Shown here piece after piece: positions 1 to 35,471 of a stretch of DNA of 64,000 nt. The translations under genes were made by a program, and so were the position numbers. The notes beneath the pieces are model-generated. The model did not search any database, was not told where the DNA came from, and saw only the letters and a program-made list of their open reading frames with translations. The DNA comes from an uncultured virus (IMG/VR IMGVR_UViG_3300044619_001509). Lineage: Duplodnaviria; Heunggongvirae; Uroviricota; Caudoviricetes. Within the stretch, counting starts at the first letter, position 1. The number at the start of each line of letters is the position of its first letter. The stretch lies in the IMG/VR virus record IMGVR_UViG_3300044619_001509, one strand, 5' to 3'.

Positions 1-1476
1 TTTGATGCCAATACAGATCCTGCTAATTCTGAAAATGGACAAATTTTGAGTTATGCTTGTGGGCCATTTGAAATAAAACAAGGTGTTCTAAACACGATTA
101 GTTATAATGTTCAAGAATCAAATCAGGAATTTTTGGTTACAGACAAGAATACGGATAAAGATTCCATTCGTGTCTTTGTATTAAATTCCATCACCGATAC
201 AACAGGATTGAATATTCCTTGGACAGTTTCTACAGATATCACTTTATTGGATGAAAATACCAGAGCATTTTTTCTAGAAGAAAATAGTTATGGACAATTG
301 GTTTTGACATTTGGTGATGGAGTTCTTGGTAAAAAATTAGAAATTGGAAATGTTGTTATTATTGAATATTTAAGTACATTTGGTTCTGTTGCAAACGGTA
401 TAGGAAGAAGTGATACCGCAACAAAAAGATCTTTTACATTTGATTCAGATAATATCTTTACCGTGTTTACAATCGAACCATCCAATTCGGGTGCGGATCG
501 TGAAACATCTGGTTCCATTAAGAGAAATGCTGTTAGAAATTTGACATCAAAGGGAAGAGCAGTAACGATAAAGGACTACGAAGGATTGGTGATTGGTTCT
601 TTCAATGATGGTGCTGCTGTTCGTTGTTGGGGCGGAGAAGAAAACGATCCGCCATATTATGGTAAGGTATTCATGTCTGTTCGTCCTGTTGGACAGACCA
701 TTTTGACATCAGAAGATAAAACAAATCTTGTCAACAATATTTTAAAGGAAAAAAATATTGTCGGAATGGATGTGGTAATTGTTGATCCAGAGGTATTGTA
801 TATTAATCCTGTGGTTGAGATTTTCTACGAAAAAGCATTGACAAAAGATTCCGAATCAACTTTGATGAACAGAATTAAAAATTCATTGGTTGTTTATTTT
901 AGACGCAACTTAGTGGAATTTGGCGACTCCATATTTTCCACGGATGTCGAGAATGATATTATGGGTATTACACCAGCATTCAAGAGTGTTGATGTTAATA
1001 TGACTATCGAAAGAAGAATTGTTCCGACACTGGGAGTTTCGGAAAGAACAACAATAGATTTTCAAAATGAATTGTACCACCCCTATGATGGTTATCAATC
1101 AATTATCAAGACAAACAAGTTTCAAATTTCTCAAAACTCAGATTACCATTACATCGAAGACGATGGAAATGGAAAATTGCTATTAAAAAAAATCAAGAAC
1201 GGTGTGGTTTCTACTGTAAATAGTAATTATGGAACAATTGATTATACCACAGGCAAATTAATTATAACCGCATTAAAAGTATATACAATTGAAAACAACT
1301 CAAGTTATGTTTATATTAGAGCAGAACCAAAGACAAATAATATATTTACAAAAAGAAATTCTGTTTTGAGTTATGATTTCTTAACAGACTCGGCTCTACA
1401 AATCAACTTAAATCAAGTAAAAACTCAACAAGTAATCGGTGGTTCTGGAACAGTAATTACAAGGCCTAACTTCTAA
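1..1476 (+). CDS. gp6: Baseplate wedge subunit, T4 gp6-like (5'-truncated by window edge)
   Basis: Frame open from base 1; gp6 motifs FGDGVLGKKL, RAVTIKDYE, WGGEENDPPYYGKVF, GTIDYTTGK; precedes gp7/gp8-like genes. Confidence 0.9.
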   Translation, partial: FDANTDPANSENGQILSYACGPFEIKQGVLNTISYNVQESNQEFLVTDKNTDKDSIRVFVLNSITDTTGLNIPWTVSTDITLLDENTRAFFLEENSYGQLVLTFGDGVLGKKLEIGNVVIIEYLSTFGSVANGIGRSDTATKRSFTFDSDNIFTVFTIEPSNSGADRETSGSIKRNAVRNLTSKGRAVTIKDYEGLVIGSFNDGAAVRCWGGEENDPPYYGKVFMSVRPVGQTILTSEDKTNLVNNILKEKNIVGMDVVIVDPEVLYINPVVEIFYEKALTKDSESTLMNRIKNSLVVYFRRNLVEFGDSIFSTDVENDIMGITPAFKSVDVNMTIERRIVPTLGVSERTTIDFQNELYHPYDGYQSIIKTNKFQISQNSDYHYIEDDGNGKLLLKKIKNGVVSTVNSNYGTIDYTTGKLIITALKVYTIENNSSYVYIRAEPKTNNIFTKRNSVLSYDFLTDSALQINLNQVKTQQVIGGSGTVITRPNF

Positions 1477-3284
1477 TGCCAACTAATTTATTATTACAAT
1501 ATCCTGTTCAAGATACCGTATTGTTTTCTGACACGCTTCGTGTCAATTACAAACTATCGTCATATAGTGATCCAAATGTAAAATCTGTGTACTTTGAGTT
1601 GGATGGATCAACACAAACTGTTTTGGTTTCAACAGAATCTGTAACATTTACTGGACTTACAGAAGGTAGTCATACTCTCAATGGTTATCTTATTGACAGA
1701 CGAAATAATTCGATTCCCAATACTAATTTTTCGGTTTCGTTTCAAACATTTGATTCGGAATTGAGCGTTGAAAACAAGTTAACTCTTGTTCTGGAATCTA
1801 CTATTCCAGGCTTTGTCAGAGAAGATTATCCAAACTTTGTGATGTTCCTAAAGGCATATTACGAATGGTTGTACTCTTCCAACAATCCTTTCTATGCACC
1901 ATTAATATCTGAAGATTTCAAGGACATTGATAAGACACCAGAATATTTTGTAAAATATTTTAAAGAACAATATCTAAAAGATTTTCCTGAGTATTTAACT
2001 TTAGATAAGCAAACAGGTTCTCCATTAAACCTAAAGACTCTCATCAAGAATGTGGGAGAGTTTTATTCATCAAAGGGAACCGAAAGATCCATAAAGTTCC
2101 TGTTGAAAATTCTATATGATACTTATTCGGAAGTTTATTATCCAAGAAAAGATCTTTTCCGTTCGTCTGATAGTAAATGGAATAAAAGAAAATCAATTAA
2201 GTTTACTGGGGATAATGTAAATATTAATGATATCAAGCAAAGAGAATTGGTTCAGAAAATAGGCGAATCAATTACTTGGAGATCGTCGGTTGTTGATATT
2301 CAATGTTACCACGCAGTTAATAAAAAAATAATTGAAGTCTTCTATCAAGAAATTAACGGAACTCCTAATTTTAATTATCCCTTCCAAGTAATTACTGAAA
2401 ATGAAACCATATCACTAAATCCTCTTCGTGTGGTTTCTGATATTAACATAACAAATTCTGGTATTAATTATAGAACAAATGATGTAATTAAGATACAAAA
2501 AGTCTATACAAATCAAGAACCCGTTGATGTTTCTGTTGCTTTAGTGGTAGAGGTGGATGAATATGGACAGATTCAAAAAATAGAAATTGCAAACTTCTTG
2601 ACTGTTGAAGATGTTGAAGGTGAGTATTACTTTGAAATCACTTCGAATATTGGATCTGGAGCCGTTCTGGTTCCAGTGGAAGGTTATATCTGTGATTACG
2701 CAGGCTATTGGACGCAAAAGAATTCTCATGCAAGTTCGATCAAAGTTCTTCCAGATAACTTAAAGTATCAAGAATTATCATATGTCGTAAGAACGAATAG
2801 AAGTTTAGACAAATATGTTGATGCTTTGAAAAAATTGGCGCATCCTGCGGGGTTTGCTGTTGTTGGTGATGTTGTATTACAAAATCAAGTGGTCGAACCA
2901 GTAGAAATTGAAGATGCGTTGTTGAATTTCTTTACACCGCTGATCGGTAATTATGCTGCGTATAGATTAAAAACTTCAATTAATATCAGAAATGCTCCAA
3001 GACCAAGTGATTCGAATATAGATCTTTATCCAGATGGATATGATCCAAATGTTTCTATTAAATTACAAAATGGAACAGATACAACTGCACATATTCCAGT
3101 TAATAAAATTAATACAAATGTAGCAAATACAAAATTTAAGCATCTTCCATCGGTTTCCGATATTGCAAATAAAAATATATATTGGGTTGTATACCCACAT
3201 CCGAATGGTGAAATAAATAATTCTACAAATATAGAACGCTTTGTGGATATTCAACTGAAAGACTTCTTAAAGCAAGAAAAATAA
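1476..3284 (+). CDS. gp7: Baseplate wedge protein, gp7-like, with N-terminal Ig-like extension
   Basis: PGFVREDYPNFVMFLKAYYEW, FYSSKGTERSIKFL, YQELSYVV, KKLAHPAGF match T4-like wedge initiators; lies between gp6 and gp8. Confidence 0.7.
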   Translation: MPTNLLLQYPVQDTVLFSDTLRVNYKLSSYSDPNVKSVYFELDGSTQTVLVSTESVTFTGLTEGSHTLNGYLIDRRNNSIPNTNFSVSFQTFDSELSVENKLTLVLESTIPGFVREDYPNFVMFLKAYYEWLYSSNNPFYAPLISEDFKDIDKTPEYFVKYFKEQYLKDFPEYLTLDKQTGSPLNLKTLIKNVGEFYSSKGTERSIKFLLKILYDTYSEVYYPRKDLFRSSDSKWNKRKSIKFTGDNVNINDIKQRELVQKIGESITWRSSVVDIQCYHAVNKKIIEVFYQEINGTPNFNYPFQVITENETISLNPLRVVSDINITNSGINYRTNDVIKIQKVYTNQEPVDVSVALVVEVDEYGQIQKIEIANFLTVEDVEGEYYFEITSNIGSGAVLVPVEGYICDYAGYWTQKNSHASSIKVLPDNLKYQELSYVVRTNRSLDKYVDALKKLAHPAGFAVVGDVVLQNQVVEPVEIEDALLNFFTPLIGNYAAYRLKTSINIRNAPRPSDSNIDLYPDGYDPNVSIKLQNGTDTTAHIPVNKINTNVANTKFKHLPSVSDIANKNIYWVVYPHPNGEINNSTNIERFVDIQLKDFLKQEK

Positions 3285-3285
3285 A

Positions 3286-5637
3286 ATGTCAAATTATCTA
3301 AAACAAACCTTCAAAACAGAACTTGCCTTGGCATTTGCAGAATCTTTTGCTGCGGACAGTTCCGACAATTATTTTTTATTCTTGGGAAAAGCCTCTGCTT
3401 GGAACGATGAACAAAATCCACCAGCGGCACAGGATACACTTCGTGAAGAATTGGATGCTTGGAGAAATATGATGGCTCTTGCAAAGATTAATAAAAGTAA
3501 TGTAATGGTTGGAGTTGCTCGTTATAATTGGCAATACAATAAAGTATTTGACCAATTTGATGATACGGTTGATTTGTACCAAGAAGGGAACGAATTCCAT
3601 TTTTATTGTATAACGGATGATTTAAATGTATATAAATGCATTTCGAATAATTACGGAAGACCATCTTTGTATAAACCAACTACGGTTTCGACAGAAGAAC
3701 AAATAACTCAAGATGGATATGTCTGGAAGTTTTTGTTTAAAGTGCGAGAAGAATTAAATGAATTTTTAACAGATGATTTTATTCCAATTGAAAAATTAGA
3801 ATCTATTCTTTATAATGACGAAAGAAATCTTCAGAACAATGTAAAGATCACTGCTGTTCCTAGTTCAATTGATAATATCATTGTGACTCAATATGGCGGT
3901 TCCTATCCTTTAGCAATCACAACCGATCCATCAAATACAGATCAGAAACATACAATTACCGAAGTAATCAATTCAAATACATTTGTTCTTGCTCCTGTAT
4001 TCGACTTAGATAAAACAAATGGTATTTACAATGACTACTATGAACTTTATATTGCTCAGGGGCCAGGAGCAGGAAGCAAAGCAACCATTCTTTCCTACAT
4101 CGTAGATGAAAACGAAATTACTGTGGTTGTGGATAAAGCATTATCTCTTACAACGAGCAGTGTTTATAGAATCTACCCTAAAATAGAAATAACAGGAGAT
4201 GGAACGGGAGCGACAGCGATTCCTGTTATGAACGAGGATAAGGTCATTACTGGAATTGATGTTATCAATTCTGGCAAAAATTATCGTTATGTTACAGTAA
4301 AAGTATACAGAAAGAATGAATCATATGCTTCTGTCACACTAGCAAGAGCAATCTTGGCTCCCGTCTATGGCCACGGATATAATGCTATTCGTGAATTGGG
4401 TGCAAACTATGTGGCGATTCATATACCACTTCGTAATTCGGAAAAAATATCACAAGCGGATGCGGTGAATATTTTAAATAATGATTACCGTCAAGTTGGT
4501 ATTTTAAAGAATGCATTTTATAATAATGAAAATACATTGACACCAATCACAACAGAAGAAAATCTTGCAACATTTTTGCAGATAGAAAATATCAATTCAT
4601 ATAGTGTAATTTATTTAGAAACAACCCAGATTATTACCGATAATACAGGAACAAAGATTTCTGTGGGTGATATTATCAAGCAAGGTTCTGAGCAAAATGC
4701 ATATCAAGCAAGAGGAATCATCAAGTCAATTATTTTGGATGAAGGAACTTCTGCTCTGAATAATTACCGTATCACAGTTCAAAATACAAATGGTAGATTC
4801 TTGTCTACATCTTCCAGTACCTATCCTCTGTTAAAAGAAGACGATTCTGTGATTTCTGGAACAATTACTGGAGTCGATTCTTCAAATTTTTACGATCAAA
4901 ATACATTCTTAGCAAATAAAAATATTATTGGAACCACAAGCAACGCAACGGCAAAAGTAGTGAAGTGGGAATGTGATCCTTATGGGTTGTCTGGAAAATT
5001 GTTTATTAATAATATAAATGGATCGTTTATAGATTCTTATTGGACGAAATCCACAGGTGGGGAAATTGTTCTTGTGAAGGGAGAAAATATCGTATCTTAC
5101 GATAGTATCATTTCAACCCCAACAAATACTGATTTGGACAATGATGGTGATGTAGATTCTGCTGATTTGGCGATCTTACTTTCTTCGTGGACAGGGCCGC
5201 AATTCTCTGGAAGCGATCCTTCCAAATCGGGAATTATTGCAGATATTGGAACCTTAGAGGGAGAGAATAAGGTATTCTATAAAGTATCAACAACTTTAAA
5301 TGTTGTACCTACTTCTGGGGTTCTAACTGGAACTATGTTTGAACCAGATGACATTATTGTAAATTCTTCTGGAGTGCAGGGAAGAGTTATATCATTTGCT
5401 CTAAATACTAGTAGTTCTGGTACTTTAGAGGTAAATGCCTTAACGGGTTCCTTTGCTGTAAATGATGTACTGTCTATTTTGACGAATACTGAAATTTCTA
5501 CAAACGCTAGAATCTCAACCATCGTCCAACCAGAAGTATTACCATTTTACGGAGATGTGATATACATACAGAATGTAGTGCCAGTAACTGCTGCAACAGA
5601 TTCAGAAGAACACATAAAAGTCTTACTTAAGTTTTAA
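3286..5637 (+). CDS. gp8: Baseplate wedge subunit, gp8-like
   Basis: RYNW, VYKCISNN, DGYVWKFLF, NDYRQVGILKN and C-terminal GDVIYIQN...EHIKVLLKF are typical of cyanophage-type gp8. Confidence 0.85.
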   Translation: MSNYLKQTFKTELALAFAESFAADSSDNYFLFLGKASAWNDEQNPPAAQDTLREELDAWRNMMALAKINKSNVMVGVARYNWQYNKVFDQFDDTVDLYQEGNEFHFYCITDDLNVYKCISNNYGRPSLYKPTTVSTEEQITQDGYVWKFLFKVREELNEFLTDDFIPIEKLESILYNDERNLQNNVKITAVPSSIDNIIVTQYGGSYPLAITTDPSNTDQKHTITEVINSNTFVLAPVFDLDKTNGIYNDYYELYIAQGPGAGSKATILSYIVDENEITVVVDKALSLTTSSVYRIYPKIEITGDGTGATAIPVMNEDKVITGIDVINSGKNYRYVTVKVYRKNESYASVTLARAILAPVYGHGYNAIRELGANYVAIHIPLRNSEKISQADAVNILNNDYRQVGILKNAFYNNENTLTPITTEENLATFLQIENINSYSVIYLETTQIITDNTGTKISVGDIIKQGSEQNAYQARGIIKSIILDEGTSALNNYRITVQNTNGRFLSTSSSTYPLLKEDDSVISGTITGVDSSNFYDQNTFLANKNIIGTTSNATAKVVKWECDPYGLSGKLFINNINGSFIDSYWTKSTGGEIVLVKGENIVSYDSIISTPTNTDLDNDGDVDSADLAILLSSWTGPQFSGSDPSKSGIIADIGTLEGENKVFYKVSTTLNVVPTSGVLTGTMFEPDDIIVNSSGVQGRVISFALNTSSSGTLEVNALTGSFAVNDVLSILTNTEISTNARISTIVQPEVLPFYGDVIYIQNVVPVTAATDSEEHIKVLLKF

Positions 5638-5650
5638 CGGAGAGTAATTA

Positions 5651-8600
5651 ATGGGTTATAACCACCCCGATATTCTAAAATCAAGTCCATACTACGACGA
5701 TTTTGAAAACACAAAGAATTTTCTTCGTATTTTATTCAAGCCTGGTGTTGCAACCCAAACCAGAGAATTGATTCAATTACAGACTCTCCTTCAGAATCAA
5801 ATTGCAAAATTAGGAAGTCACATCTTTAAGGATGGAAGTCAAGTATTTGGTGGTGGTATCACTCTCAATGAAGCCAATTACATCAAAACGGTGGTTACTC
5901 TTCCTTCTGGAACGACTACAGATAGTTTAAAAGGTAAAATTCTTGTTCAAGGTACAAATTCTTCAAATAGCGTAAGAGCAAGAATTGTTGACATTTTACC
6001 TAGTGTTTCTGCTGATCCATTTACTATTTTTGTTGTTCAATATTTGACAGGAAATGAATTCCAGAGTACATCTTCTCTTACTATTACGGTAGAAGGACAA
6101 CTCGGAGTTAATGTTTTATTTACTGGGGCAGCAGACAGAAAAGGTACATGTCAAACTCTATCCGTTGAATCTGGTATTTTTTATGTTGATGGATTCTTCG
6201 TAAATAGCAACCCACAAACAACAACTCTTGTTCGTTATGATAATGGTGTTCGTAGATTTACAGATGCAATCTTAACATCAGAAGGAGTAACCAACCGAGT
6301 AGGTTTCGAAATTGAAAGAACGGTGGTAACTTCGGTTGATGATGAAACCTTAAACGATCCTGCCCGTGGATTTTACAATTATTCCGCTCCTGGCGCAGAT
6401 CGTTATGTAATTAATTTAAATCTTATTGCTCAAGAATTTGATCCTGCTTCTGTAGAACCAGGCGAATTTGTAACTCCAGATTTTGTCGAATTGGCGAGAG
6501 TTGTAAAAGGTGTTCTTGATTATGTAAAGAAAGTACCAACCTATTCTGAATTGGTAGATACTCTTGCAAGAAGAACATATGACGAATCTGGAAATTATAC
6601 AGTAACTCCATTTGAATTGGAAGTCAAGAACCATTATAGAGATGATGAATATTTTCTTTATGTTAAAGTAAATACACCTTCTACTATAAATTCTGTCTTT
6701 GAAGGTGATTTTATTGTCAATAATATAAATGGATTGGCTACAAAAATAGGATTGATTACTTCCGTAGAAACCTATTCACCAACAACAGCGGAGTTGACTT
6801 CTGGTGGAACAAATGATCTTCCTACTCATGTAATACGAGTAAAAAGAGAAAAAGTAAATGGAACATATAATTATGTTTTCTTTACTAGTTCCGATACTGC
6901 AATTCACAGAAGCAGAAGTTTAGTAGATACTACATTGGGTGCAATTAAGAGAATCACGGTAAGTCGTGATCCTAATGGTGTATATTCTCCAGAAGAAGGT
7001 GGAACAGACGATAAATTTGTATTGTCTGTAAAGCCTGGTAAAGCATATGTTTTTGGTTATGAATTTGAAACCATCAATAATACAAATATCGTTGTGGATA
7101 AAGAAAGAAATGATTCTGTCTATACGGTAAATGATTATAATTTGGGTGCAAATATTGGAAATTACTTCTTGGTTAAAGCAAATCTTGCAAATGGTAAATA
7201 TGCATTTAATCGTTGGGATACTTCTATCAATCTAGAAGAAATGCCATACATGAAGTTTGGTGGGAAATATGTTCGCATAACAATTCCAACACAAGCAGAA
7301 GATACAAGAGATCATGCGCTAAAGTATTGGTCTCCAGTTGCAAAAGATCAAACAACATCGTTTAGAAGTGTTGCTTTTGTTACGGAAGAATCCGCACTCT
7401 CTACAGAAAGTATTGCGGCACACACAAATCCCGCAAACCCATCATACTTAAATCTTATTGATTTTTCTGGTGAAGGCGCAACAAATGACGATCTTTATGG
7501 TGATGGATATATTCGTCCACAGAACACATCAAGAACTCAATCTAAGTCCATTGGTGGTGCGTCATCCTTGACTGCATATCCTATGGTAAATATGAGTAAT
7601 GATATTGAAACTAATATTTCAAGATTAGCATTTTCAGAACCTTGGCATGGAAATTTTGATACTTCATACAATTCTACTTCAGAATCGAATGGAGCATTAT
7701 CGACTTATTCTGGAACATTCCCCGTTAAGCAAATTAAGTGTCTCGATACTGCAAATCCATCTTCGATTCAAGTAACAACAGGACACGCTTTGCGTTGGGT
7801 TCCTGCTTCAAATAGTGGTGCATATTCTACTTCTGGAAGTACACTTTTTGTCAAATTAATTAACACAACAGATTACACTGGTGGTACAAATCTCGAAACA
7901 GCAAGATTTAATGTTGAAGATGGTGTAATCTTTGCAGATCCTACAACATCAACAAATCCAATTTCATACGGTTCAAGTATCGCGTATATTTTAAGAGATA
8001 CGAGTATCAAGAGAATTATTGTTCGTTCTGCTCAGGATTTGGGTTGTGTAAACGATAGTGCTTGTACGGACGCAGGACAGGGTGGTTTCTATTCTGTTGG
8101 TGATATCGTAACACAAAATTACGATAAGAATGGAATTGAAATTCAAGCAACAGGTGAAATTATTGCAATCGGTGGAGATTTCACAACACCAAACACTAAC
8201 ATCGAATTGTACATTCAAACATCTGGAACAAATTACATCTATGGTGTAAATGATACCGTAGAAATGTCAGTTCAAGGTATTACGAATCTCGGATGCTTGA
8301 TTGGGCCATGCGGACTTTACAAACCAAGATCAAGTATAACATTAAATAATCCTGGCTGCGGTGAGTGTGTGAGAATTGGTTTCCGTGATTCTGAAAATGT
8401 CGGTGCATATACTGTAAACGAAATTGCATTCCAGTACAACTATCTTGCTCTTCAAGAAGTCTCTGGAGTACCACAATACCTTGATTCAAACTTGGTAAAG
8501 GGTCGTATTGTTGGTTGGGATGACACATCTAAAGAATTGATTGTTCTTGAAACACAAGGACGATTTGAAATTGCAAATGGTACAATATACGAATTGAAAT

Positions 8601-11600
8601 CATCTACAGGACAAGCAGTAAAATATGGTGGACGCGGTTGGGATAAATTTAAGACTAAGTTCCAAAAGAACACAGGTGCAACTCAACCCCAATACGATAT
8701 TGAAAAAGTAAGTGGTATCTTCATTGATATTGCAAGTACCCCAAATAAAAATTTTATTGAAACTTCTTATTCTGTGTTCGATGCAGCGATTGCGTCTGGT
8801 ACTGGTGAAACCATTACTCAGATTGCGGTTCCGTTTGTTGGAAATTACTTTGAAGGTAAAGATTTTGTTGTTGGAGAAGAAGTTAACCAAACAATATCAA
8901 CATCATCAATTGCAAGAGGAACTGTTCTTTCTTGGACACACCGAGATTTAACAAATCCATCAGATAGAGCAGATACAATTATCATTATCAAACCAATTAA
9001 TACGGTAGAGTTTGTTGTTGGTTCATCTGCAATTAATAACCCTCTTGTGAGTTTCGCAAACCCTGCGGTAAGTTATGATTTGTCTGGTGTGGGAACAACA
9101 AGAACAAAAGAAATTCTTGGTGCAGGAAGAATTCGTCTTCTACGCAGACAAGAAGAAGATGCATATCAGGCATATTTCTTTGATATAAAAATGGATTTCT
9201 TACCCGACAGATCTCGCAAATACAACTTGAATGAAGTGTTTAATTTCTATTATGAAGATGGATTTAAGAATGCAATTTTAAGCGAATTTGAGGACGAAGA
9301 TATTCAATTAGAAATTTCGGAAAATAATTTTGTATTTGAAGTTCATCCTACACTTGGTATCGAAAGTACAGATTACAGTAAGGTATTCGATACCGATAGA
9401 AATTCGTTGTTGTTTAGACTTGCTGGTAGCGAATCCGTAAAGAATGTTGGAGAATTGGATTATCGTATTCAAAGACAATATAATTTATCTGGACCTTTTG
9501 GAACAGATACTTTGTCTTTCTCAACAGATAGTCCTTATGTACGATTTATCGGTGGTGAATCTTCAACAACTGGTTTGGTAGATTCGAATGATTTGATCGA
9601 ACACTATAGTTTAATTTTAACTTTTAATACAGGATTACAATACATTGAATCCTTGTCAAATGGAAACTATACAGTAACAACCAACAATTATTCATCTCCA
9701 ACTAGCATTGCTACATTGTCGATTAAGAGAAAGAGCGGAGTCGCTTGGAGTGACTTGACAAAAGTTTCTTTGATTGCAAATTTAAATGTAAATCCAAGTG
9801 GAAATACATCCCTAATTCGCACAAAGACAGTAGAAAGATTTACAGAAACAGTAACTTTAAAGAAAACAAAGTCTGGTGTTTGGAAAGCAACTCTGTCCCG
9901 AGCAGATATTTTAACAATTGACAAGATTACTGCAATATCATCCAATACAAATGTAAAAGAACAATTTGATCTATATGATGGTCAAACAGATAATCTTTAC
10001 GATTTGGGACAAATTACACTCAAGTCACAATACTTGGTAAATAATGTACCAAATTTTGCAAATTATCAGGTGATTGTATCGTACCGCTATTTCTATCATG
10101 AAAACAGTGGACCATTTACAAAGAACTCATACGAAAATATTGACTATACAGATATTCCTTCGTATACGAGTTCGTTGAATGGTCAATATTACAAATTGGA
10201 TTCTGTAATCGATCTTCGTCCATTGAAGACAACAGATGGATCTATTGTATCTGGATCCAAGTGGATTCCCGCTCCTGCAAATTCATTTAATGTAGATTAT
10301 GAATACTACTTGCCAAGAGCATACAAATTGGCAATTACAAGAGATTTGAATTTTAAACTTATCAGCGGTATTCCCGCGTTCACACCAGAATTACCTTCTG
10401 ATGATGAAAACGCAATGACAATTTACAATATTACAACCTCTCCATATATCTTTGATAAAACGGATGTCGTTGCAAATATGGTAAATAATCGTCGCTATAC
10501 GATGAAAGATATCATTGCATTGGATGATCGTATACAAGCACTGGAACAATTTACATTATTGAATTCTTTGGAAAGAGAAGCAGAAAACAAGTCTATCATA
10601 GACGAAGCAAGTTCTCTCCCAAGAGTCATCAGTTCGATTCTTGTAGATAATTTCAGTACGCATGGTAAGGGTGATACGCTAAACAAAGAATACAATGTAA
10701 GTATTGACTCTGAAAATAACCTGATTCGTCCATCATTTGAAATGGGAACAGTTGATCTAGTAGATTCAACGAGTGCAAACACAACAAGCAATGTGATAAA
10801 AACACCAGATAATGTTGTAATGCTATCTTATGATGCGGTTCCATTAATTTCACAATTGTCAGCAAGTGGAACAGAAAAGATCAATGCATTTAATGATAAC
10901 TCATGGATTGGTTCTATTGCTCTCACACCAAGCACAGATTCTTGGTTTGATGAAACCATCAAACCAGATGTTCGTGTAAATGAAAACAATGCTAACAATG
11001 CAATCAGTGATGTATTCCCTGCTCCAAATAGCAGAAACAACAATGGTATGGGATCTGATTGGGGATTCTGGAAGAGAAAGTGGTTTGGTAATAAACCAGA
11101 AGCAAAGAAAAATACAAATCCAGATCGCAGACCTTGGTGGTTAAAGCAAAGAAAGATCGTACCCGATACTAAGATTGCAGCAGCAACGACATCAAGTAAT
11201 GTCGTAAATGTTGGTGAAAATAAGATCGTAGACAAGTCGGTTGTTCCATACATCCGTGAAAAAACAATAACAGCAGTAGTCGAAGGGTTAAAACCATTTA
11301 CTGTCGTATATGTGTTCTTTGACGATGTAAACATTACCTCACAATGTCAAATCTTAAACAGTGTGGGACAAGTTGTAAGTGGAACGGGATTGAGAACAGA
11401 CTCAAGAGGATCGCTACAATTCAGTTACACTATCGAAAAAGGTAAGTTTAAGACAGGTGAAAAATTACTTGTTGTTACAAACTCACCCACAAACAATGCT
11501 CAATCTGCAACAACAGTAGCAGAAGCGGTATATGTTGCTTCTGGTGCAATTCAGATTGCTACAAATACGGGAATTTCAACAAGAAAGTTAATTAAAAAAC

Positions 11601-12874
11601 CAGCATCTTACACAAAAAATATCAGCGATCCATTGGCACAAACATTCTTTGTGGATGAAGCGCAGTATCCAGAAGGTGTCTTTGTAACGAGTGTTGATAT
11701 TTTCTTCGCCACAAAGGATTCAAATCTTCCCGTGACGCTAGAATTGCGTCCTACGGATAGCGGATATCCTTTGACTAGAAACAGAACAACAATCTATCCA
11801 TTCTCTTCTCTAACAAAATATCCTTCACAAATAACCGTATCCGATGATCCAAACTTAGATAAGGATATGATCAAAACTACCTTTACCTTCTCGACTCCTG
11901 TACATTTACTGCCAGGAGAACACGCAATCGTTTTGAGAAGTAATAGTTCTGACTATTCGATCTATGTTGCTGAAGTGGGCCAGTTGCTAGTAAATAGCGA
12001 ATCTAGAATTACTCAGCAAGCAGCAGTCGGTTCATTCTTCAAGACGCAAAATGCAGGAAAGTGGCAGAATTACGAAAACATCGATATGATGTTTGCAATC
12101 AATCGTTGTGAATTCAATACCACACAAGGTTACATTACATTTACAGATACTCCTGGCGTATTGGCATCAGAAAACCCATACGAAACATATACGGTAAACA
12201 ATGACGAAGTAAAATTCAACAATACTTCGATCAAGTATCGTGTAAGAAACACAGTTGCTACGGATTCGGTAATTCAACCAAACTCGGTATTGATTACTCC
12301 AAATACTAACATAGATTTGAATGCTTCTCATAAGATAACAAATACTGGTTTGAGTTTTGAATTGGAAGTAGAACTAAACAGCGATAGTACAGTAGTTTCT
12401 CCGTTGTTTGATATTGATAGACTCAGAGTTGCTACAGTACACAATGTATTGGACAACAATTCGGATATTAATGTTCAATCCGAACAATACAATGGAGAAT
12501 TGGAACCAAAATCGGATGTTCTTCGTGCAAGATACATAACGAAAATTGTGGAATTGGAATCTGGATTTGAATCATCAAATATCAAAGCGACATTTAATGT
12601 AAATATTCCTGCGGACACAAAGGTGCAAGTATTCATCAAGCACCAATCTGCGGGTGCAGATAATCCATTCGATGACGAAAGATATACTCTTCTTGTGCCA
12701 AATAAATCAAATTATGTGTCACCAGATGTGGATAGTTTCACGGACATTGAATATACTCTTCCTCAAGATTTGGATCAACCTTTCTGTAAGTTTGCTATCA
12801 AGATTTGTTTATATTCAAGTAATCCTGCAAGAGTACCAAAAGTAAAAGAAATGCGAGTGGTAAGTGTCATCTGA
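5651..12874 (+). CDS. Very large virion structural protein, VrlC/DUF4815-like
   Basis: PYYDDF...LF.PG...Q.RELIQLQT, APGADRY, LARRTYDESGNY, RRYTMKDI, DPLAQTF; usual position after gp8. Confidence 0.8.
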   Translation: MGYNHPDILKSSPYYDDFENTKNFLRILFKPGVATQTRELIQLQTLLQNQIAKLGSHIFKDGSQVFGGGITLNEANYIKTVVTLPSGTTTDSLKGKILVQGTNSSNSVRARIVDILPSVSADPFTIFVVQYLTGNEFQSTSSLTITVEGQLGVNVLFTGAADRKGTCQTLSVESGIFYVDGFFVNSNPQTTTLVRYDNGVRRFTDAILTSEGVTNRVGFEIERTVVTSVDDETLNDPARGFYNYSAPGADRYVINLNLIAQEFDPASVEPGEFVTPDFVELARVVKGVLDYVKKVPTYSELVDTLARRTYDESGNYTVTPFELEVKNHYRDDEYFLYVKVNTPSTINSVFEGDFIVNNINGLATKIGLITSVETYSPTTAELTSGGTNDLPTHVIRVKREKVNGTYNYVFFTSSDTAIHRSRSLVDTTLGAIKRITVSRDPNGVYSPEEGGTDDKFVLSVKPGKAYVFGYEFETINNTNIVVDKERNDSVYTVNDYNLGANIGNYFLVKANLANGKYAFNRWDTSINLEEMPYMKFGGKYVRITIPTQAEDTRDHALKYWSPVAKDQTTSFRSVAFVTEESALSTESIAAHTNPANPSYLNLIDFSGEGATNDDLYGDGYIRPQNTSRTQSKSIGGASSLTAYPMVNMSNDIETNISRLAFSEPWHGNFDTSYNSTSESNGALSTYSGTFPVKQIKCLDTANPSSIQVTTGHALRWVPASNSGAYSTSGSTLFVKLINTTDYTGGTNLETARFNVEDGVIFADPTTSTNPISYGSSIAYILRDTSIKRIIVRSAQDLGCVNDSACTDAGQGGFYSVGDIVTQNYDKNGIEIQATGEIIAIGGDFTTPNTNIELYIQTSGTNYIYGVNDTVEMSVQGITNLGCLIGPCGLYKPRSSITLNNPGCGECVRIGFRDSENVGAYTVNEIAFQYNYLALQEVSGVPQYLDSNLVKGRIVGWDDTSKELIVLETQGRFEIANGTIYELKSSTGQAVKYGGRGWDKFKTKFQKNTGATQPQYDIEKVSGIFIDIASTPNKNFIETSYSVFDAAIASGTGETITQIAVPFVGNYFEGKDFVVGEEVNQTISTSSIARGTVLSWTHRDLTNPSDRADTIIIIKPINTVEFVVGSSAINNPLVSFANPAVSYDLSGVGTTRTKEILGAGRIRLLRRQEEDAYQAYFFDIKMDFLPDRSRKYNLNEVFNFYYEDGFKNAILSEFEDEDIQLEISENNFVFEVHPTLGIESTDYSKVFDTDRNSLLFRLAGSESVKNVGELDYRIQRQYNLSGPFGTDTLSFSTDSPYVRFIGGESSTTGLVDSNDLIEHYSLILTFNTGLQYIESLSNGNYTVTTNNYSSPTSIATLSIKRKSGVAWSDLTKVSLIANLNVNPSGNTSLIRTKTVERFTETVTLKKTKSGVWKATLSRADILTIDKITAISSNTNVKEQFDLYDGQTDNLYDLGQITLKSQYLVNNVPNFANYQVIVSYRYFYHENSGPFTKNSYENIDYTDIPSYTSSLNGQYYKLDSVIDLRPLKTTDGSIVSGSKWIPAPANSFNVDYEYYLPRAYKLAITRDLNFKLISGIPAFTPELPSDDENAMTIYNITTSPYIFDKTDVVANMVNNRRYTMKDIIALDDRIQALEQFTLLNSLEREAENKSIIDEASSLPRVISSILVDNFSTHGKGDTLNKEYNVSIDSENNLIRPSFEMGTVDLVDSTSANTTSNVIKTPDNVVMLSYDAVPLISQLSASGTEKINAFNDNSWIGSIALTPSTDSWFDETIKPDVRVNENNANNAISDVFPAPNSRNNNGMGSDWGFWKRKWFGNKPEAKKNTNPDRRPWWLKQRKIVPDTKIAAATTSSNVVNVGENKIVDKSVVPYIREKTITAVVEGLKPFTVVYVFFDDVNITSQCQILNSVGQVVSGTGLRTDSRGSLQFSYTIEKGKFKTGEKLLVVTNSPTNNAQSATTVAEAVYVASGAIQIATNTGISTRKLIKKPASYTKNISDPLAQTFFVDEAQYPEGVFVTSVDIFFATKDSNLPVTLELRPTDSGYPLTRNRTTIYPFSSLTKYPSQITVSDDPNLDKDMIKTTFTFSTPVHLLPGEHAIVLRSNSSDYSIYVAEVGQLLVNSESRITQQAAVGSFFKTQNAGKWQNYENIDMMFAINRCEFNTTQGYITFTDTPGVLASENPYETYTVNNDEVKFNNTSIKYRVRNTVATDSVIQPNSVLITPNTNIDLNASHKITNTGLSFELEVELNSDSTVVSPLFDIDRLRVATVHNVLDNNSDINVQSEQYNGELEPKSDVLRARYITKIVELESGFESSNIKATFNVNIPADTKVQVFIKHQSAGADNPFDDERYTLLVPNKSNYVSPDVDSFTDIEYTLPQDLDQPFCKFAIKICLYSSNPARVPKVKEMRVVSVI

Positions 12875-13085: not shown

Positions 13086-16000
13086 ATGCCCAATACAAAT
13101 GATATTGATCTTCAAAAGTTAACACTTGATAGTACATTTTATGATTGGTATCTTCGTACCAATCAGATCATTGATTATATCAATCCGATCAATGTCTATG
13201 ATGTATTTGCTGGCAGTGGTCTTCAAGAATCCCGAACAGGTACGCCAGGAACTGTACAAATAAGTTTGGGTACAAATCCTGCAAATTATGGTATTGATAC
13301 TCTTACAGATAGTAATGGAGATTCTATTACTATTTTGAATATTGCTGGTTTAACATCAAGTACAGTATCGAACACAAGCACATTTGCATTTGGTGGTACG
13401 ACTTCAAAATCTGTTTTAAGAAAAGTGGCAGCATCGGATATGCTTCCACCAACAATTAACGGTAATCATTTATTTACAGGAACAATTACTGTCGGTGATT
13501 TGATTGTACGAGATGGTACAATTATTCTTAATGATACAGGTTCTACGAGAGACAATGTAGGACTTGTAATAGAATCGACAGCAGATACCGCAGCAAATAA
13601 TGTGTCTTTCTTGTTCGATACAGATACAAATGCATGGTATTCTAACAGAAATCTAGGAATGACTTCTGGAAGAAGATTTGTTACGAATGCTATAGGTTCG
13701 GCAACATATCCATTTTATGCGTCCAATTCTCAAGCTATTGTAGACATTCAATTACAAACTAATGTTGGTGCTACTCTTGAAGCATGGTCGATAAGAGGTG
13801 CTTGGGGCTCTCCCGATACTCTTATTTTTGGACATTATACCAATGGTGTAAAGGTTGCAGATGTTTTAGAATTAAGATCTGGTGGTACAAATACAGATAC
13901 TAGAGTTATTGTAAAAGATGCATTAACTATTACCGATATTTTAAATTCCTCTCCGTTTAGTGCAACTCCTGCGGTTACGAGTGTACCTATCACAGATTCC
14001 ACCAATGGTTATTTAAGTACATTTGTTAATCGAATTAAAGCATCAACAGCACTAACAGGAAGTGATATTGGTCGCATTGTCAGACTAGATGGTAGCGGTA
14101 ACGCAATTAGTGCTGTTGCAAGTTCTGAAGCAAATTCACAAACAATTGGTATTTTGGAATCTGTTTCTGGTGGCGTAGCAACAGTAATTACTTCTGGTAT
14201 TTGTCCAATTAGACCAAGAGATAACACTGGTACTCAAATATCAATGACCGCTGGTACGGTATATTATTTACATCAATCAATAGCAGGAGCAGTACAGGCT
14301 ACAAAACCATCTTCTGGGTTCGTAAAACCAGTATTGATTGCAACATCTTCAACACAGTGTGTGTATGTTCCTGATTTTTATTATGCAGCAGGAACATCCG
14401 CGTTTACTGCCGTTCAAGTTGTAGATACGGGTGAAACATATACAGCATCCGCAGCAGGAACTACCTTGCGCTTAGACGGTGGAAATTCAATTGCTTTAGA
14501 TTACACGACAAACGGCACAATTGTATTCAATTATACAGGAACGCAATTACCAAGCGTTGGGAATAGTTCATTTTATATTAAAAACAGTGTAGGTACTAAT
14601 ACAGGATTTGCTCCAAGCACCTATAGTTTAGTTGGACAACCACTAAATTCTGGTATTGCTGATATTCCTGTAGCGCCAGGAACATTAGTTGGTAGACGCG
14701 ACGATACGGATGATAGTAACAATCCAGTAGAAGCACTTTTACCAAGTCAAGTTCGCAGTATTCTTGGATTTAGTGGCAATCGTTACATTAAATCCATTCT
14801 GTTTGAAGAATCTGCAAGTACAGATATTATTAATTTTGATGCTATAAATTCAGAATCGGTAAAGGTTCGTGCTGGATTTGGTATTGATTTTACTTATGAT
14901 TCCGTGGAAAAAGCAGTAGTAATTACAAACACAGGCGGTGGGGGTGGTGGTACAGGTGGACCAAGTACATTAGACATCACTGCTACTGGTGGTGGTTCTG
15001 CAAGCGATATTGGTGCTATTCGTTTCTTGAATTCTGATGCAAGAAACTTTATTGATTTTACAGTAGAAGAAAACACTTCGGGTACAGCATCTATAGTAGC
15101 AAGACCAAAAAATACATTTTTAACATTAGCATCTGTGTCAAGTATAAATCATGATGCTGGTGACATATTAAGAATAATTGGAACTACTGGAGTAAATGTT
15201 GCGCTTGCATCTTTAGGATCAACAAATACATTTACATTATCGTTATCGTCTACTATAACACCAAATACAGTAAGATCGACAACAAATACACTTGAATTAG
15301 ATACAAATTCACTAAGAACTCTTTCATTTAGAGTCAAGGATTCTGCTACGAGTGGTCCTGCTTATTTCAGTACCGATACAAATTACATTACCACACTTGA
15401 GACATTTGATAATATCACTCAGGGAACAAGAGTTGATAGCACACTCTACAATTTTACTGGTAGTAATCCCGTATCAAGAGAAAAATGTGTATCTATGTTT
15501 GCTGATATGACTATTGGTCCTGATACAGTAAGTTTCCCATTCAGATTCTATAAAATCATTGCAGATAAAATTAAAGTTACGGATCTTGAGGTAACAGGAA
15601 CAGCAATTAAGAATTTTACAGAAATTAATAATTTGTCTGGTGAAAGTTATGCCATAACATCATATAATTTAAACAGAATTCGTTTACCATCAGCATTAGA
15701 TGGTATTTTGCTTGATTTTGAAACGACAACTGGTTCCAGTAATCGTGCGTTCATAATGAAACCCGAACCAAATACATTTGGTTCAGGAACATCAAAATCT
15801 TTCTTTATATCAGAAAAAATATTCTTTGCAGATCAAACTTTAAATCAATTTAGTCCATCTATAGGTTTAGATAGTGCTGGTTCCATATTAGTACAATCAA
15901 ATTCTGCTCAATCTAAATTCAGAATGGTGGATTCTGCAAACAGAGAATGTTCGGTTGGTGTTCAAACTGGTTATGCATTCTTAACATATGATCCAGATTC

Positions 16001-16265
16001 TACTGGTCCAAATTCTGCAATTTCTTTGAGAGTAACTTCGGATACACTACTAAACAATGCAGATTCATTCATGGTTGGTATTGTAGGAACAGAAGGTTGG
16101 AAGATAAATACTGTTGCATACGCAACGGGGGATATTGGTAAAGCAATGAGAATTGCAAGCGTTACTGATGGTGTTGCAACTATAGAGGCAAGAGATTATA
16201 TCAAACCATATGTTGTAGGAACTACCTCTGGTGATCTGATTAATACTTTATATTATGTGGTATAA
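13086..16265 (+). CDS. Putative tail fibre/virion structural protein
   Basis: 1059 aa, T/S/G-rich beta-type composition, N-terminal DSTFYDWYLRTN anchor-like motif, poly-Gly linker; within the tail region. Confidence 0.6.
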   Translation: MPNTNDIDLQKLTLDSTFYDWYLRTNQIIDYINPINVYDVFAGSGLQESRTGTPGTVQISLGTNPANYGIDTLTDSNGDSITILNIAGLTSSTVSNTSTFAFGGTTSKSVLRKVAASDMLPPTINGNHLFTGTITVGDLIVRDGTIILNDTGSTRDNVGLVIESTADTAANNVSFLFDTDTNAWYSNRNLGMTSGRRFVTNAIGSATYPFYASNSQAIVDIQLQTNVGATLEAWSIRGAWGSPDTLIFGHYTNGVKVADVLELRSGGTNTDTRVIVKDALTITDILNSSPFSATPAVTSVPITDSTNGYLSTFVNRIKASTALTGSDIGRIVRLDGSGNAISAVASSEANSQTIGILESVSGGVATVITSGICPIRPRDNTGTQISMTAGTVYYLHQSIAGAVQATKPSSGFVKPVLIATSSTQCVYVPDFYYAAGTSAFTAVQVVDTGETYTASAAGTTLRLDGGNSIALDYTTNGTIVFNYTGTQLPSVGNSSFYIKNSVGTNTGFAPSTYSLVGQPLNSGIADIPVAPGTLVGRRDDTDDSNNPVEALLPSQVRSILGFSGNRYIKSILFEESASTDIINFDAINSESVKVRAGFGIDFTYDSVEKAVVITNTGGGGGGTGGPSTLDITATGGGSASDIGAIRFLNSDARNFIDFTVEENTSGTASIVARPKNTFLTLASVSSINHDAGDILRIIGTTGVNVALASLGSTNTFTLSLSSTITPNTVRSTTNTLELDTNSLRTLSFRVKDSATSGPAYFSTDTNYITTLETFDNITQGTRVDSTLYNFTGSNPVSREKCVSMFADMTIGPDTVSFPFRFYKIIADKIKVTDLEVTGTAIKNFTEINNLSGESYAITSYNLNRIRLPSALDGILLDFETTTGSSNRAFIMKPEPNTFGSGTSKSFFISEKIFFADQTLNQFSPSIGLDSAGSILVQSNSAQSKFRMVDSANRECSVGVQTGYAFLTYDPDSTGPNSAISLRVTSDTLLNNADSFMVGIVGTEGWKINTVAYATGDIGKAMRIASVTDGVATIEARDYIKPYVVGTTSGDLINTLYYVV

Positions 16266-16267
16266 CT

Positions 16268-17956
16268 ATGAGCGAAATAAGAATTAAAACGGCAAATCCA
16301 GATGTAATTACTAATATACCAGAAACACTTGGTAATATTAAAGTTAAAGATGAAAATGGCATAATAAGAGATGTTAAAAAGTTGTATGCTAAAAATGGTT
16401 CTGGTGAACCTAGTCTTGTTTGGGATGCTACGGTCGCACCACCAAGCACACAAGATTCTACGCAACCAATATTACAATGCCCTTCTTGCGAATCTGGTTC
16501 TGAAGTATTTTATCCAGAAATACAAGCAATAGGAAAAAGATGGGATTATTGCACTTGGAAAGATACTGGATTATTGTCTTCTTGTTGGAAAAATCCTCCA
16601 GAAACAAGAACATATGCATCCATACGAAAACAAGATCCAGATAAGTTAAATTTTTTACCCCCCCCACCAAATTACATTATGGGTGAATTATTATCTTATA
16701 CCGTACCAGATAGAGTTCTTGTATTTGTTAATAGGCCATTGGTTTCGGATGTACCAAATCATACAGATAAGATATTTTATGGAAAACAAGATAATAGTTT
16801 TCCTTGCTTGGAGGAGTGTTCTCCTTCTTCTGGATGTCAATTAAATGAACCAGATACTACTCTGTGTGATGTCGGTTCTTCAACCCAATCTATTTACGGT
16901 ATAATCGATCAAAGACATCTATTGATAGATACCAGTTGTGTTTCGACAGGATCGTTTAATAATAAAACAAATTCTTGTTCTACTTATTGTTACGGAGAAC
17001 CAGACTTCACTACTGTGTGTCGTTCTGTGAATAGAATACATCCATTATATTTAGAAGACTTGATTTTGACTGATTTTAGTGGTGCTTGCGAAAACCAGTA
17101 TCCAGAATTTTCTCTTATACAATTTAATTTTGGGGATCCTCCTCTAGATCCTCCTTATTTACAATTTGCAAATGATTATACCAACAATAATTTATTTTTA
17201 ACAATTAAGGATATTTCTGTTATAGTCGATTCCTCTTGCTCGAATGAAGAGTTTTCTGCATGGACATTTAGGATGTTTTTACCAATATATGTGTACATAC
17301 CAACAGAAAGAAATAATTATGTAAGAGTTCAAACCCCATTAGATTCTATAATGGACGGATTGTTAGCAGGAAATAATTCAAATATTAATTTAATAACAGA
17401 AACCAACCCAAACTATGATCCGATTGTTCATGCTGTATATCGAGTATTATCGGGAGAAACTAAATTATCTCAAGCATTTTATTCTTCAAATGCAAATAAT
17501 GATGCACGATGGGGGATAATAGGATATCCGAGAGCAGAACCAGTAGATTTTCCTCTACCAGATAAAAATCTTGCAACTCATTGTGTGGTTATTGAAGTAA
17601 CAAATGCAGAAGATGGTAATCCAACTAACAATTGTAATTATTGTTCAAATACACGAGAAGGAAGTAGTTTTAAAGCTTCAAATATTAGATTTTATCCTTT
17701 AGAATCCTATTCCCAAGCTGGAGCTCCTGGCTCATTTGCAGCACCATTACAAAGTTATGGTAATCAAAATGATCTGGGGTATGACAGTTTGGATCAAATA
17801 AATGAAGTATACTCTGATTGTGCAGGAATTGGTGTTTTTTTTGGTAAAACATATTCAAATACTGCAGAATTATCATTCCAAGATTTTTACAATGCTTACT
17901 ACCAACCATATATAACTACGACAGAAAGTACGGATTGTAATACAACATGTTTATAG
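16268..17956 (+). CDS. Cys-rich hypothetical protein, probably virion-associated
   Basis: 562-aa ORF with about 20 Cys, tightly packed after the fibre gene; function inferred from location only. Confidence 0.55.
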   Translation: MSEIRIKTANPDVITNIPETLGNIKVKDENGIIRDVKKLYAKNGSGEPSLVWDATVAPPSTQDSTQPILQCPSCESGSEVFYPEIQAIGKRWDYCTWKDTGLLSSCWKNPPETRTYASIRKQDPDKLNFLPPPPNYIMGELLSYTVPDRVLVFVNRPLVSDVPNHTDKIFYGKQDNSFPCLEECSPSSGCQLNEPDTTLCDVGSSTQSIYGIIDQRHLLIDTSCVSTGSFNNKTNSCSTYCYGEPDFTTVCRSVNRIHPLYLEDLILTDFSGACENQYPEFSLIQFNFGDPPLDPPYLQFANDYTNNNLFLTIKDISVIVDSSCSNEEFSAWTFRMFLPIYVYIPTERNNYVRVQTPLDSIMDGLLAGNNSNINLITETNPNYDPIVHAVYRVLSGETKLSQAFYSSNANNDARWGIIGYPRAEPVDFPLPDKNLATHCVVIEVTNAEDGNPTNNCNYCSNTREGSSFKASNIRFYPLESYSQAGAPGSFAAPLQSYGNQNDLGYDSLDQINEVYSDCAGIGVFFGKTYSNTAELSFQDFYNAYYQPYITTTESTDCNTTCL

Positions 17957-26421: not shown

Positions 26422-27177
26422 ATGGCAGACTCAAGCATTAATTCATTTATGACAAACTTTGACGGTGGTGCAAGACCAAATCTTTACACCTTCGTCTTAG
26501 CATGTCCTGGTCTAGCAGTATTAAATCCACAATTTGCACAACTTCAGTTTTTCTGCCGCAGTACACAGCTTCCTGCTTCTGTACTTGGAGAAATTACTGT
26601 ACCGTATTTGGGAAGACAAGGTAAGTATCCTGGCGATAGAACCTTTGAAGATTTTACGATTACCGTAATCAACACTCAAGATATGAATCTTCGTAGAGTG
26701 TTTGAATTCTGGCACGAAAACTTCAACACATACGCAGGAAACTCAACTTCGTATCCCAATCCAAGACAAATATTTGGTACTGCGGTTGTGACACAACTCA
26801 ATAAGGCATACCAACCAGTTCGTGCATATCAGTTGTTTGATATGTTCCCAAGAGATGTATCATCTGTTGATTTGGCATATGATAACAACGATACTGTTTC
26901 TGAATTCTCAGTAACTTTCGGATATTCATACTTTGTTACTGACAATTCTCCTGCAAACAGTGCCGCTGGAGTTGGTGGTCAAGGATTACTCAATCCTGGC
27001 GCATATGTTCCTGGTCTTGCTGGTTCTGGAAATGGATTCGGTTTTGGAAACAACGGATTTGGTGGTGGACAAGGATTTGGAGTATCGTTCGGTTCTGGAC
27101 CTAGTGGATCGGGATTCTCGTTTGGATATGGTAATGGTAATTCTGGATTTGGTTTTGGTTACGGTAAGAGTAATTAA
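26422..27177 (+). CDS. gp19: Tail tube protein with Gly/Phe-rich C-terminal extension
   Basis: GGARPNLY, FFCRSTQLP, PGDRTFEDFTITV, FPRDVSSVDL.YD, EFSVTFGY; about 75 extra C-terminal residues. Confidence 0.92.
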   Translation: MADSSINSFMTNFDGGARPNLYTFVLACPGLAVLNPQFAQLQFFCRSTQLPASVLGEITVPYLGRQGKYPGDRTFEDFTITVINTQDMNLRRVFEFWHENFNTYAGNSTSYPNPRQIFGTAVVTQLNKAYQPVRAYQLFDMFPRDVSSVDLAYDNNDTVSEFSVTFGYSYFVTDNSPANSAAGVGGQGLLNPGAYVPGLAGSGNGFGFGNNGFGGGQGFGVSFGSGPSGSGFSFGYGNGNSGFGFGYGKSN

Positions 27178-35453: not shown

Positions 35454-35471
35454 TTGTATAAGGAGAAAACA

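Follow-up and report, generated by a model that had tools for sequence, protein, structure and literature searches.

Why would a T4-like phage carry, inside a baseplate protein, a short segment that looks like part of a dockerin, and does that segment reveal anything about its host? The question is raised by a 64,000-nucleotide stretch of DNA from an uncultured virus (IMG/VR record IMGVR_UViG_3300044619_001509; hereafter "the window"), in which positions 5131-5190 on the plus strand encode DLDNDGDVDSADLAILLSSW, corresponding to residues 616-635 of a gp8-like baseplate wedge protein that is 783 aa long. An original prediction, made from the sequence alone, had placed this motif in a variable part of gp8 and had proposed that it is a calcium-binding EF-hand/dockerin loop, of a form characteristic of Planctomycetota, which the phage captured from its host. 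The placement in a gp8-type protein is supported by the translation, PF09215, and phrog_438 alike; the other claims fared less evenly.

The motif, its carrier protein, and the origin of the insertion

The open reading frame (ORF) matches PF09215 (Phage-Gp8) over residues 8-95 at 33.3 bits (cut-off 25), phrog_438 ("baseplate wedge subunit") covers residues 1-532 with an expectation value (E) of 5.5e-73, and the gene is placed after those for gp6 and gp7 in a T4-like genome. The protein therefore has the N-terminal domain and gp6-gp7-gp8 gene order of T4 gp8 (PF09215; baseplate structure 5iv5), together with a T4-like core genome. However, whereas the Pfam profile has 337 positions, the phage protein has ~350 extra C-terminal residues plus the calcium-loop insertion. 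Unlike T4 gp8 itself, the extra C-terminal beta-domains are confined to a small uncultured clade. Cultured phages align to the protein over residues ~1-490 only (80% coverage in 0 of 466 records), and the C-terminal part (query residues 480-783) is shared with just 16 proteins of 746-783 aa. Protein names are of little help, as the gp8 relatives, and also the proteins that match the motif only, are called "hypothetical protein" or left blank throughout.

The DNA encoding the motif starts with GATTTGGAC and ends with TCGTGG. A degenerate back-translation of the 20-mer has one match in the window, and matches none of 100 dinucleotide-preserving shuffles, even when two mismatches are allowed. A six-frame regular-expression scan found no second copy in the 64-kb window, and a looser loop expression detected no further calcium loop in either the gp8 protein or the window.

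Judged by its sequence, the motif is a single dockerin-type ("F-hand") calcium loop followed by a helix, i.e., half a dockerin. The dockerin ligand pattern (D/N at positions 1, 3, and 5, Gly at position 6, a hydrophobic side chain at position 8, D/N at 9, and D/E at 12) is present as D616, D618, D620, G621, V623, D624, and D627. The only Pfam match of the excised pieces is Dockerin_1 (PF00404; E 1e-3 on 40 aa), which spans profile positions 32-52 of 57 and so represents one of two repeats. A sequence search of the PDB returned nine weak matches (E 0.06-1), six of them to cellulosomal dockerins and two to a protease with three dockerin-like repeats, and the dockerin and protease matches each align to one repeat. 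Type I dockerins (PF00404; 2y3n_B, 1daq_A, 2mte_A, 2vn5_B) have the same loop, with D/N at positions 1, 3, 5, and 9, G6, a hydrophobic position 8, and D12, and the same following helix with L..LL spacing. They differ in having two repeats and in ending secreted enzymes, whereas the phage segment is one repeat inside a structural protein. The segment also departs from a canonical EF-hand, which has an entering helix and Glu at loop position 12; in the phage protein this position is Asp, and DSSP assigns an exit helix only. The motif thus appears to behave like one dockerin repeat while standing outside the two-repeat domain family, and its nearest sequence relatives are dockerin repeats.

Seven of the 20 motif positions vary among the four orthologues that carry it, and all six ligand/Gly positions are spared; loop position 8 varies between V and I. 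In a strain recovered from another study (X8, described below), the motif has two changes (V623I and L628F, by codon reading), and the ligand/Gly positions are again spared. Thirty-one unrelated proteins match the segment only, at a library-wide E ≤ 1e-3 and often in several repeats. Of these, 18 match Dockerin_1 (E ≤ 0.01), 12 of them with scores over the cut-off, and five match PEP-CTERM. The ESM Atlas provided leads only, with a best feature score of 0.79, under the tool's bar; the structural neighbors are mostly dockerin-bearing clusters, with Planctomycetota the commonest phylum in 5 of 10 rows, and two viral. A separate observation concerns the repeat variant DxDxDGD[VI]DDADFG..F..F, which is present in 2-4 copies in P0025, P0043, P0050, P0052, P0058, P0084, and others, and directly precedes a hydrophobic, Arg-rich C-terminus. 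P0058 is among the PEP-CTERM matches, and in this variant a dockerin-type repeat is combined with a sorting signal of the exosortase type.

In an alignment of 17 family members (A1), a 24-residue block (residues 612-635) that includes the motif is found in four (P0001-P0004, where P0001 is the protein encoded in the window), and is lacking from the 13 others. The carriers are 75-91% identical over the C-terminal part, and in all four the block is accompanied by one additional Pro shortly after it. The insertion is missing from two proteins of viral contigs (L205 and L206) too, and is intact, with no indel, in the independent X8 contig. At this position, two of the distant gp8-like proteins of alignment A3 (P0026 and P0030) carry small insertions of unrelated sequence. 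The description of this part of gp8 as variable proved correct.

A first tree placed the four carriers opposite a supported clade of 15, with an unresolved base and with outgroups that were long branches without the region, and did not polarize the indel. Polarity was settled instead by distant gp8-like proteins from an exhaustive HMMER search with query residues 481-783, which yielded 81 representatives. No calcium loop was found in the gp8-like members of these 81. In alignment A3, the segment is absent from all 14 distant gp8-like proteins (0/14), while the flanking near-invariant "GE" columns do align; the C-terminal tail of gp8 is also found in these distant proteins. Because all of them lack the block while its flanks align, the homologue alignments confirm an insertion, and indicate that the 24-residue block is derived and lies in an indel-tolerant loop. 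It was gained once, by one sub-lineage.

Structure models and proposed role

The full-length AlphaFold2 (AF2) model is poor, with a mean predicted local distance difference test score (pLDDT) of 53 and a weakly modeled gp8 core domain. An AF2 model of the fragment comprising residues 430-783 has a mean pLDDT of 70 and two confident beta-domains, and the linker between them is structured only at the loop-helix (pLDDT 59-71; flanks <50). The model fits an exposed, tethered element in the linker between the beta-domains, albeit at modest confidence. Foldseek against the PDB gave nothing usable (template-modeling score <0.1). The VIA-align look-alikes of the C-terminal model (best Z 7.3, a baseplate chain of phage KP1 that resembles the beta-barrel domain at residues 669-749) were set aside as not distinctive, this Z being in the range that the tool assigns to common arrangements, and the domain at residues 430-579 has small beta-barrel look-alikes at Z<8 only.

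Because loops of the EF-hand type usually work as pairs, and gp8 of T4 forms a homodimer in the baseplate, we modeled two copies of residues 430-783 with two calcium ions in ESMFold2. The prediction scored 0.48, compared with 0.00 for the best of three controls. Of 30 proteins with solved structures that are same-chain pairs, 20 reach a score of 0.48, compared with 1 of 23 with single-chain structures; the counts apply only roughly here, given that a custom alignment was used and the ligand was included in the run. At least 94% of the contacts recur across the dimer runs, with a partner pLDDT of at least 73. The predicted interface (P0001 numbering) includes residues 546-555, 578-579, 601-612, the helix face 624-625/628-629/632, residues 635-640, and residues 643-649. 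The contacts 639:639 and 640:640 are symmetric, and both linkers take part. The model supports binding between the gp8 C-terminal arms, but does not show it.

The role that we consider most likely, and favor by a modest degree, is that of a clasp, ordered by calcium, where the outer arms of gp8 meet. The loop would bind one Ca2+ via D616, D618, D620, the backbone at D622, D624, and D627; binding would order the loop and the helix, and the hydrophobic face of the helix (L628, L632, and W635) would then pack at the twofold axis that joins two gp8 C-terminal arms. Such a calcium-dependent clasp would stiffen or lock the outer arms of the baseplate, and the segment would not be an autonomous docking domain. 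There is a parallel in principle only: according to a review (PMC3499812), many phages need calcium, and calcium switches the baseplate of the lactococcal phage p2, where the bound ion controls conformation and infectivity. Phage p2 is a siphovirus, and both the protein and the calcium site involved are different.

Several findings weigh against a calcium-ordered clasp built from half a dockerin. The Dockerin_1 score remains below the gathering cut-off of 22.9 bits (19.7 on 40 aa and 16.8 on 252 aa), the family is absent from full-length gp8 at E ≤ 0.01, and there is a single repeat where a dockerin module of ~60 residues has two tandem repeats of ~22 residues each. None of the Pfam EF-hand models (PF00036, PF13202, and PF13499) matches the excised pieces at E ≤ 10. 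The EF-hand/dockerin loop of the original prediction is thereby narrowed to half a dockerin, in which the Dockerin_1-type signature survives and the EF-hand match does not. The sparing of the ligand positions has a p value of 0.044, which derives from four close sequences. Model confidence around the motif is modest, with poor flanks, and loop residues 616-623 are outside the predicted interface, so that the model has no classic loop-to-loop EF-hand pairing. Most interface residues are also present in insertion-free relatives, whose arms may dimerize without the insertion. Lastly, the segment is missing from at least 15 related clusters and is consequently dispensable for basic function.

The low model confidence, and the existence of relatives without the segment, would also suit a neutral passenger, i.e., a short acidic stretch, inserted where a surface loop tolerates it, whose likeness to a calcium loop is accidental and which has no role. 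That P0026 and P0030 tolerate other insertions at the same site points in the same direction. Nevertheless, we think it rather unlikely. The match extends over 20 positions, with none expected by chance; the ligand positions are retained both in the four orthologues (at 75-91% C-terminal identity) and in the X8 strain; and the segment is a complete loop and helix unit with dockerin repeats as its closest relatives.

Motif distribution and the host question

To see where the motif form occurs, we used the strict pattern D[LF][DN]xDGx[VIM]DxxD[LF]xx[LIFM][LF]xxW. A scan of prokaryotes, with one genome per species, gave at least 131 stretches, and labels were tallied by a manual count of their titles, made twice. 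Among the 131 matches listed, 115 carry Planctomycetota-lineage labels, 11 those of other phyla, and 5 are unlabeled. The Planctomycetota labels listed are mostly Phycisphaerae/Phycisphaerales, and also Isosphaeraceae and Pirellulales. NCBI labels proved unreliable in two cases. A "Gammaproteobacteria" metagenome-assembled genome (MAG; G003, locus L167) is grouped in a phylum of 0.4-2.1 Mb genomes, and a "Bacteroidia" MAG (G004, locus L104) with 13 motif copies shares the phylum sample of the Phycisphaerae genome G002, which itself has 11 copies, one of them among the matches listed.

The form is nonetheless rare across the phylum of G002, where 1 of 200 other sampled genomes has the strict motif, compared with 4 of 150 other sampled genomes in its class. 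The backgrounds are 0 of 200 genomes in the phylum of G003 and 0 of 150 in that of G006; against these, when pooled (0/350), the class differs (Fisher p = 0.008) and the phylum does not (p = 0.36). The motif form is concentrated in particular many-copy Planctomycetota lineages and is no phylum-wide mark. One member of the class, the 3.3-Mb genome G306, has 41 strict-motif copies while 146 of the 150 have none, and represents an extreme lineage-specific motif expansion. The claim that the form is characteristic of Planctomycetota accordingly holds for the labels among the matches listed, but not for the phylum at large, nor for cellular genomes exclusively, given its presence in 72 viral stretches.

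Five MAGs with titles suggestive of lake water columns have 15, 6, 11, 16, and 13 copies in 2.1-3.3 Mb; they were picked for having motif matches. Cohesin (PF00963) is above the cut-off in two of the five (G549 and G550). According to Andrei et al. 2019 (PMC6461901), Nemodlikiaceae (CL500-3), the hallmark lineage of lakes within the Phycisphaerae, whose genomes are the smallest, possess cohesin and dockerin modules of a non-cellulosomal "planctosome". The lake Phycisphaerae-titled MAGs share the motif form with the phage, as well as the lake-water habitat. However, the planctosome modules described there are full and are found on cellular secreted proteins, whereas the phage has a single repeat.

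These data are the basis for an alternative in which the loop was acquired from the host and plugs into cohesin-type sockets on the cell surface for calcium-dependent adsorption. It would also mark the host as a member of the Planctomycetota, most concretely lake-plankton Phycisphaerae with a non-cellulosomal cohesin-dockerin system. We regard both the docking function and the host assignment as unlikely, though not negligibly so, and a Planctomycetota host as a clue worth testing, not a finding. In its favor are the 115 Planctomycetota labels and the relabeled "Bacteroidia" MAG, the enrichment in the class of G002, and the lake MAGs with 6-16 copies and, in two cases, a cohesin, as well as the modules described for Nemodlikiaceae (PMC6461901). 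Phage DNA moreover turns up in three studies (X3, X13, and X17) with metagenomes from lake water or freshwater. The D3+D7 variant seen in the phage is present in 16 of 143 prokaryotic instances listed and in 0 of 80 other viral ones, and the best match among the prokaryotic instances listed (16/20) is in a Phycisphaerae MAG. The motif scores highest, at 60.4 bits, under a model of lake MAGs G548-G550, compared with 58.8 under a general prokaryotic model, 55.5 under a viral one, and 47.5 under lake MAGs G551-G552, although these scores differ little and the groups were defined post hoc.

Set against this are the single repeat below threshold, the rarity of the form across the phylum, and the limits of the prokaryotic figures, which are figures among the matches listed, with NCBI labels wrong twice and the five lake MAGs selected for their motif matches. 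The viral stretches make a phage-to-phage origin or convergence possible, and the many segment-free relatives presumably infect similar hosts. A Pfam scan of 30 ORFs in the window detected no cohesin either. The segment has a guanine-plus-cytosine (GC) content of 40%, which is phage-like (phage 35%), compared with a mean of 64% for the prokaryotic loci listed, and shows no trace of recent transfer. T4-like phages are often far more AT-rich than their hosts, and because of this we did not count the GC content of the phage against a GC-rich host. A DNA comparison of the whole window with the five lake MAGs gave no spacer match and returned one 31-nt match (87% identity, E 0.067) that we take to be chance, as it is inside an ORF with no repeat array; these five MAGs are incomplete and the null result carries no information on the host. 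Capture from the host, as originally proposed, has thus found no direct support.

In a further reading, which we rate as improbable, two half-dockerins, one per gp8 chain, would form a complete dockerin-like plug across the twofold axis, and six such plugs per baseplate would provide calcium-dependent docking onto surface cohesins of lake Phycisphaerae of the CL500-3/Nemodlikiaceae type. The number six assumes one gp8 dimer per wedge, as in T4.

In viral contigs, the strict pattern is found in 72 stretches (one being the phage's own record), at loci with a GC content of 0.35-0.62. Thirty-five representative carrier ORFs were compared with PHROGs, of which five match structural families (baseplate wedge, virion structural, and tail fibre) and 30 match none. 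Dockerin-type repeats are, in this light, a building block that viral structural proteins use repeatedly. One viral contig (L048, 1-3819, minus strand) encodes an ORF of at least 1273 aa with five spaced strict-motif copies, the N-terminal part of which matches phrog_17744, the same PHROG as the gp7-like gene of the window. There are also two smaller families with one near-C-terminal copy each. Members of the L004 type (~360 aa, ~15 contigs) have "LSSKIEDLNDDGKVDGADL..." or close variants, and those of the L005 type (~215-260 aa, ~11 contigs, GC 0.54-0.57) have "SDQ.RSDLN.DG.VDGKDLGILFGQW". Neither type has PHROG matches or relatives in cultured phages, and no cultured-phage relatives were found for the two largest motif-bearing viral families (L004, 364 aa, and L030, 258 aa). 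A tblastn search of 50,697 cultured phage records with a 28-residue segment likewise gave no match, but is uninformative, given the short acidic query and the low-complexity filter.

The structural PHROG matches of 5 of the 35 viral carriers might suggest that the loop is a docking point for a phage-encoded accessory protein, such as a fibre or enzyme with a cohesin-like module that is assembled on the baseplate. We consider this highly improbable, since the Pfam scan of the 30 window ORFs detected neither a cohesin nor another candidate partner, and the motif occurs just once in 64 kb.

The phage, its genome, and wider meaning

The coordinates of the gp8 features and of the neighboring wedge genes are given in Table 1.

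Table 1. Features of the gp8-like gene and adjoining baseplate wedge genes (positions are those of the window)
Feature	Position	Strand	Evidence
24-residue lineage-specific insertion, PTNT + DLDNDGDVDSADLAILLSSW, residues 612-635	5119..5190	+	alignments of relatives
12-residue predicted calcium-binding loop, DLDNDGDVDSAD, residues 616-627	5131..5166	+	Dockerin_1 profile 32-52
Predicted exit helix, residues 625-634; hydrophobic face L628, L632, with W635 just past the helix	5158..5187	+	fragment model
Predicted beta-rich domain before the insertion, residues 430-579	4573..5022	+	AF2 block-mean pLDDT 66-89
Predicted beta-barrel domain after the insertion, residues 669-749	5290..5532	+	AF2 block-mean pLDDT 78-93
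Conserved C-terminal tail (...YIQN..P......EE.IK...F)	5533..5634	+	conserved columns, alignments A1, A3
gp6-like baseplate wedge gene, its 5' end cut off by the window edge	1..1476	+	phrog_219, E 1.1e-89
gp7-like baseplate wedge gene	1476..3284	+	PF23786 Baseplate_wedge; phrog_17744, E 3.5e-49
gp8-like baseplate wedge gene, 783 aa (P0001)	3286..5637	+	PF09215, phrog_438

A T4-like core fills the rest of the window, with genes for terminase, sheath, tube, portal, and major capsid protein, and for gp43 polymerase, UvsX/UvsY, clamp, clamp loader, and RegA. The best identity of the major capsid protein to cultured phages is at most 54% (a Synechococcus phage and the Methylophilales phage Melnitz), and that of the polymerase at most 51%, with cyanomyoviruses the best. 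No tRNA genes that could be used for host inference were found in the window. An identical gp8 is encoded by a 20.9-kb viral record (G001), and phage DNA is found in public runs tagged lake water, freshwater, or plain metagenome, in 20 rows from 17 studies, although two of these rows may be the record's own source. Identical pieces are present in X3 and X13 (both lake water) and in X17 (freshwater); X13 and X17 cover parts of the gp8 gene only, and the motif is outside their coverage. The contig from X8 ("metagenome", a separate study) is 27,870 nt long and spans positions 4500-5700 with 49 substitutions and zero indels. The phage is an uncultured freshwater T4-like myovirus, and a recurrent one, because its DNA turns up in lake and freshwater runs of several studies.

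Some other genes in the window deserve mention. Directly after gp8 is a 2407-aa ORF (5651-12874, plus strand) that matches DUF4815 (E 5.7e-54) and phrog_358, and it is followed on the same strand by ORFs of 1059 aa (13086-16265) and 562 aa (16268-17956) without a Pfam or PHROG match; all three are probably distal baseplate or fibre proteins. The phrog_45 tail tube family is represented twice on the plus strand, at 26422-27177 beside the sheath gene and at 35454-36011 after the major capsid gene. The replication module also contains, in the interval from regA to the dUTPase gene, plus-strand ORFs for an LtfC-like beta-sandwich (51149-51535) and a Laminin_G_3 (concanavalin-like lectin) protein (52638-53435), which are possible extra adhesins. 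Two large plus-strand ORFs (43834-45474 and 57239-58561) have partial matches to N6_N4_Mtase (PF01555), one at 27.6 bits (cut-off 26.7) and the other at 22.9, below the cut-off.

The segment presents a known motif in a new architectural setting. In the literature searched, we found no published description of such a dockerin-type insertion in a phage baseplate, and one candidate paper for a phage dockerin turned out to concern a carbohydrate-binding module instead. The literature searched likewise yielded no report of a CL500-3 virus, and the sole mention of phages in a 2025 review of Planctomycetota is of phage genes on a plasmid. For the abundant uncultured T4-like phages of lakes, few of whose hosts are known, the motif offers a concrete and cheap host hypothesis. 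If two half-dockerins did complete a plug across the gp8 dimer, the phage would possess a split receptor-binding device, and this may be the first phage-host link for CL500-3/Nemodlikiaceae. Whatever the host may be, the presence of one calcium loop in a baseplate protein constitutes a clean natural experiment on how environmental calcium may tune the stability or the triggering of the baseplate.

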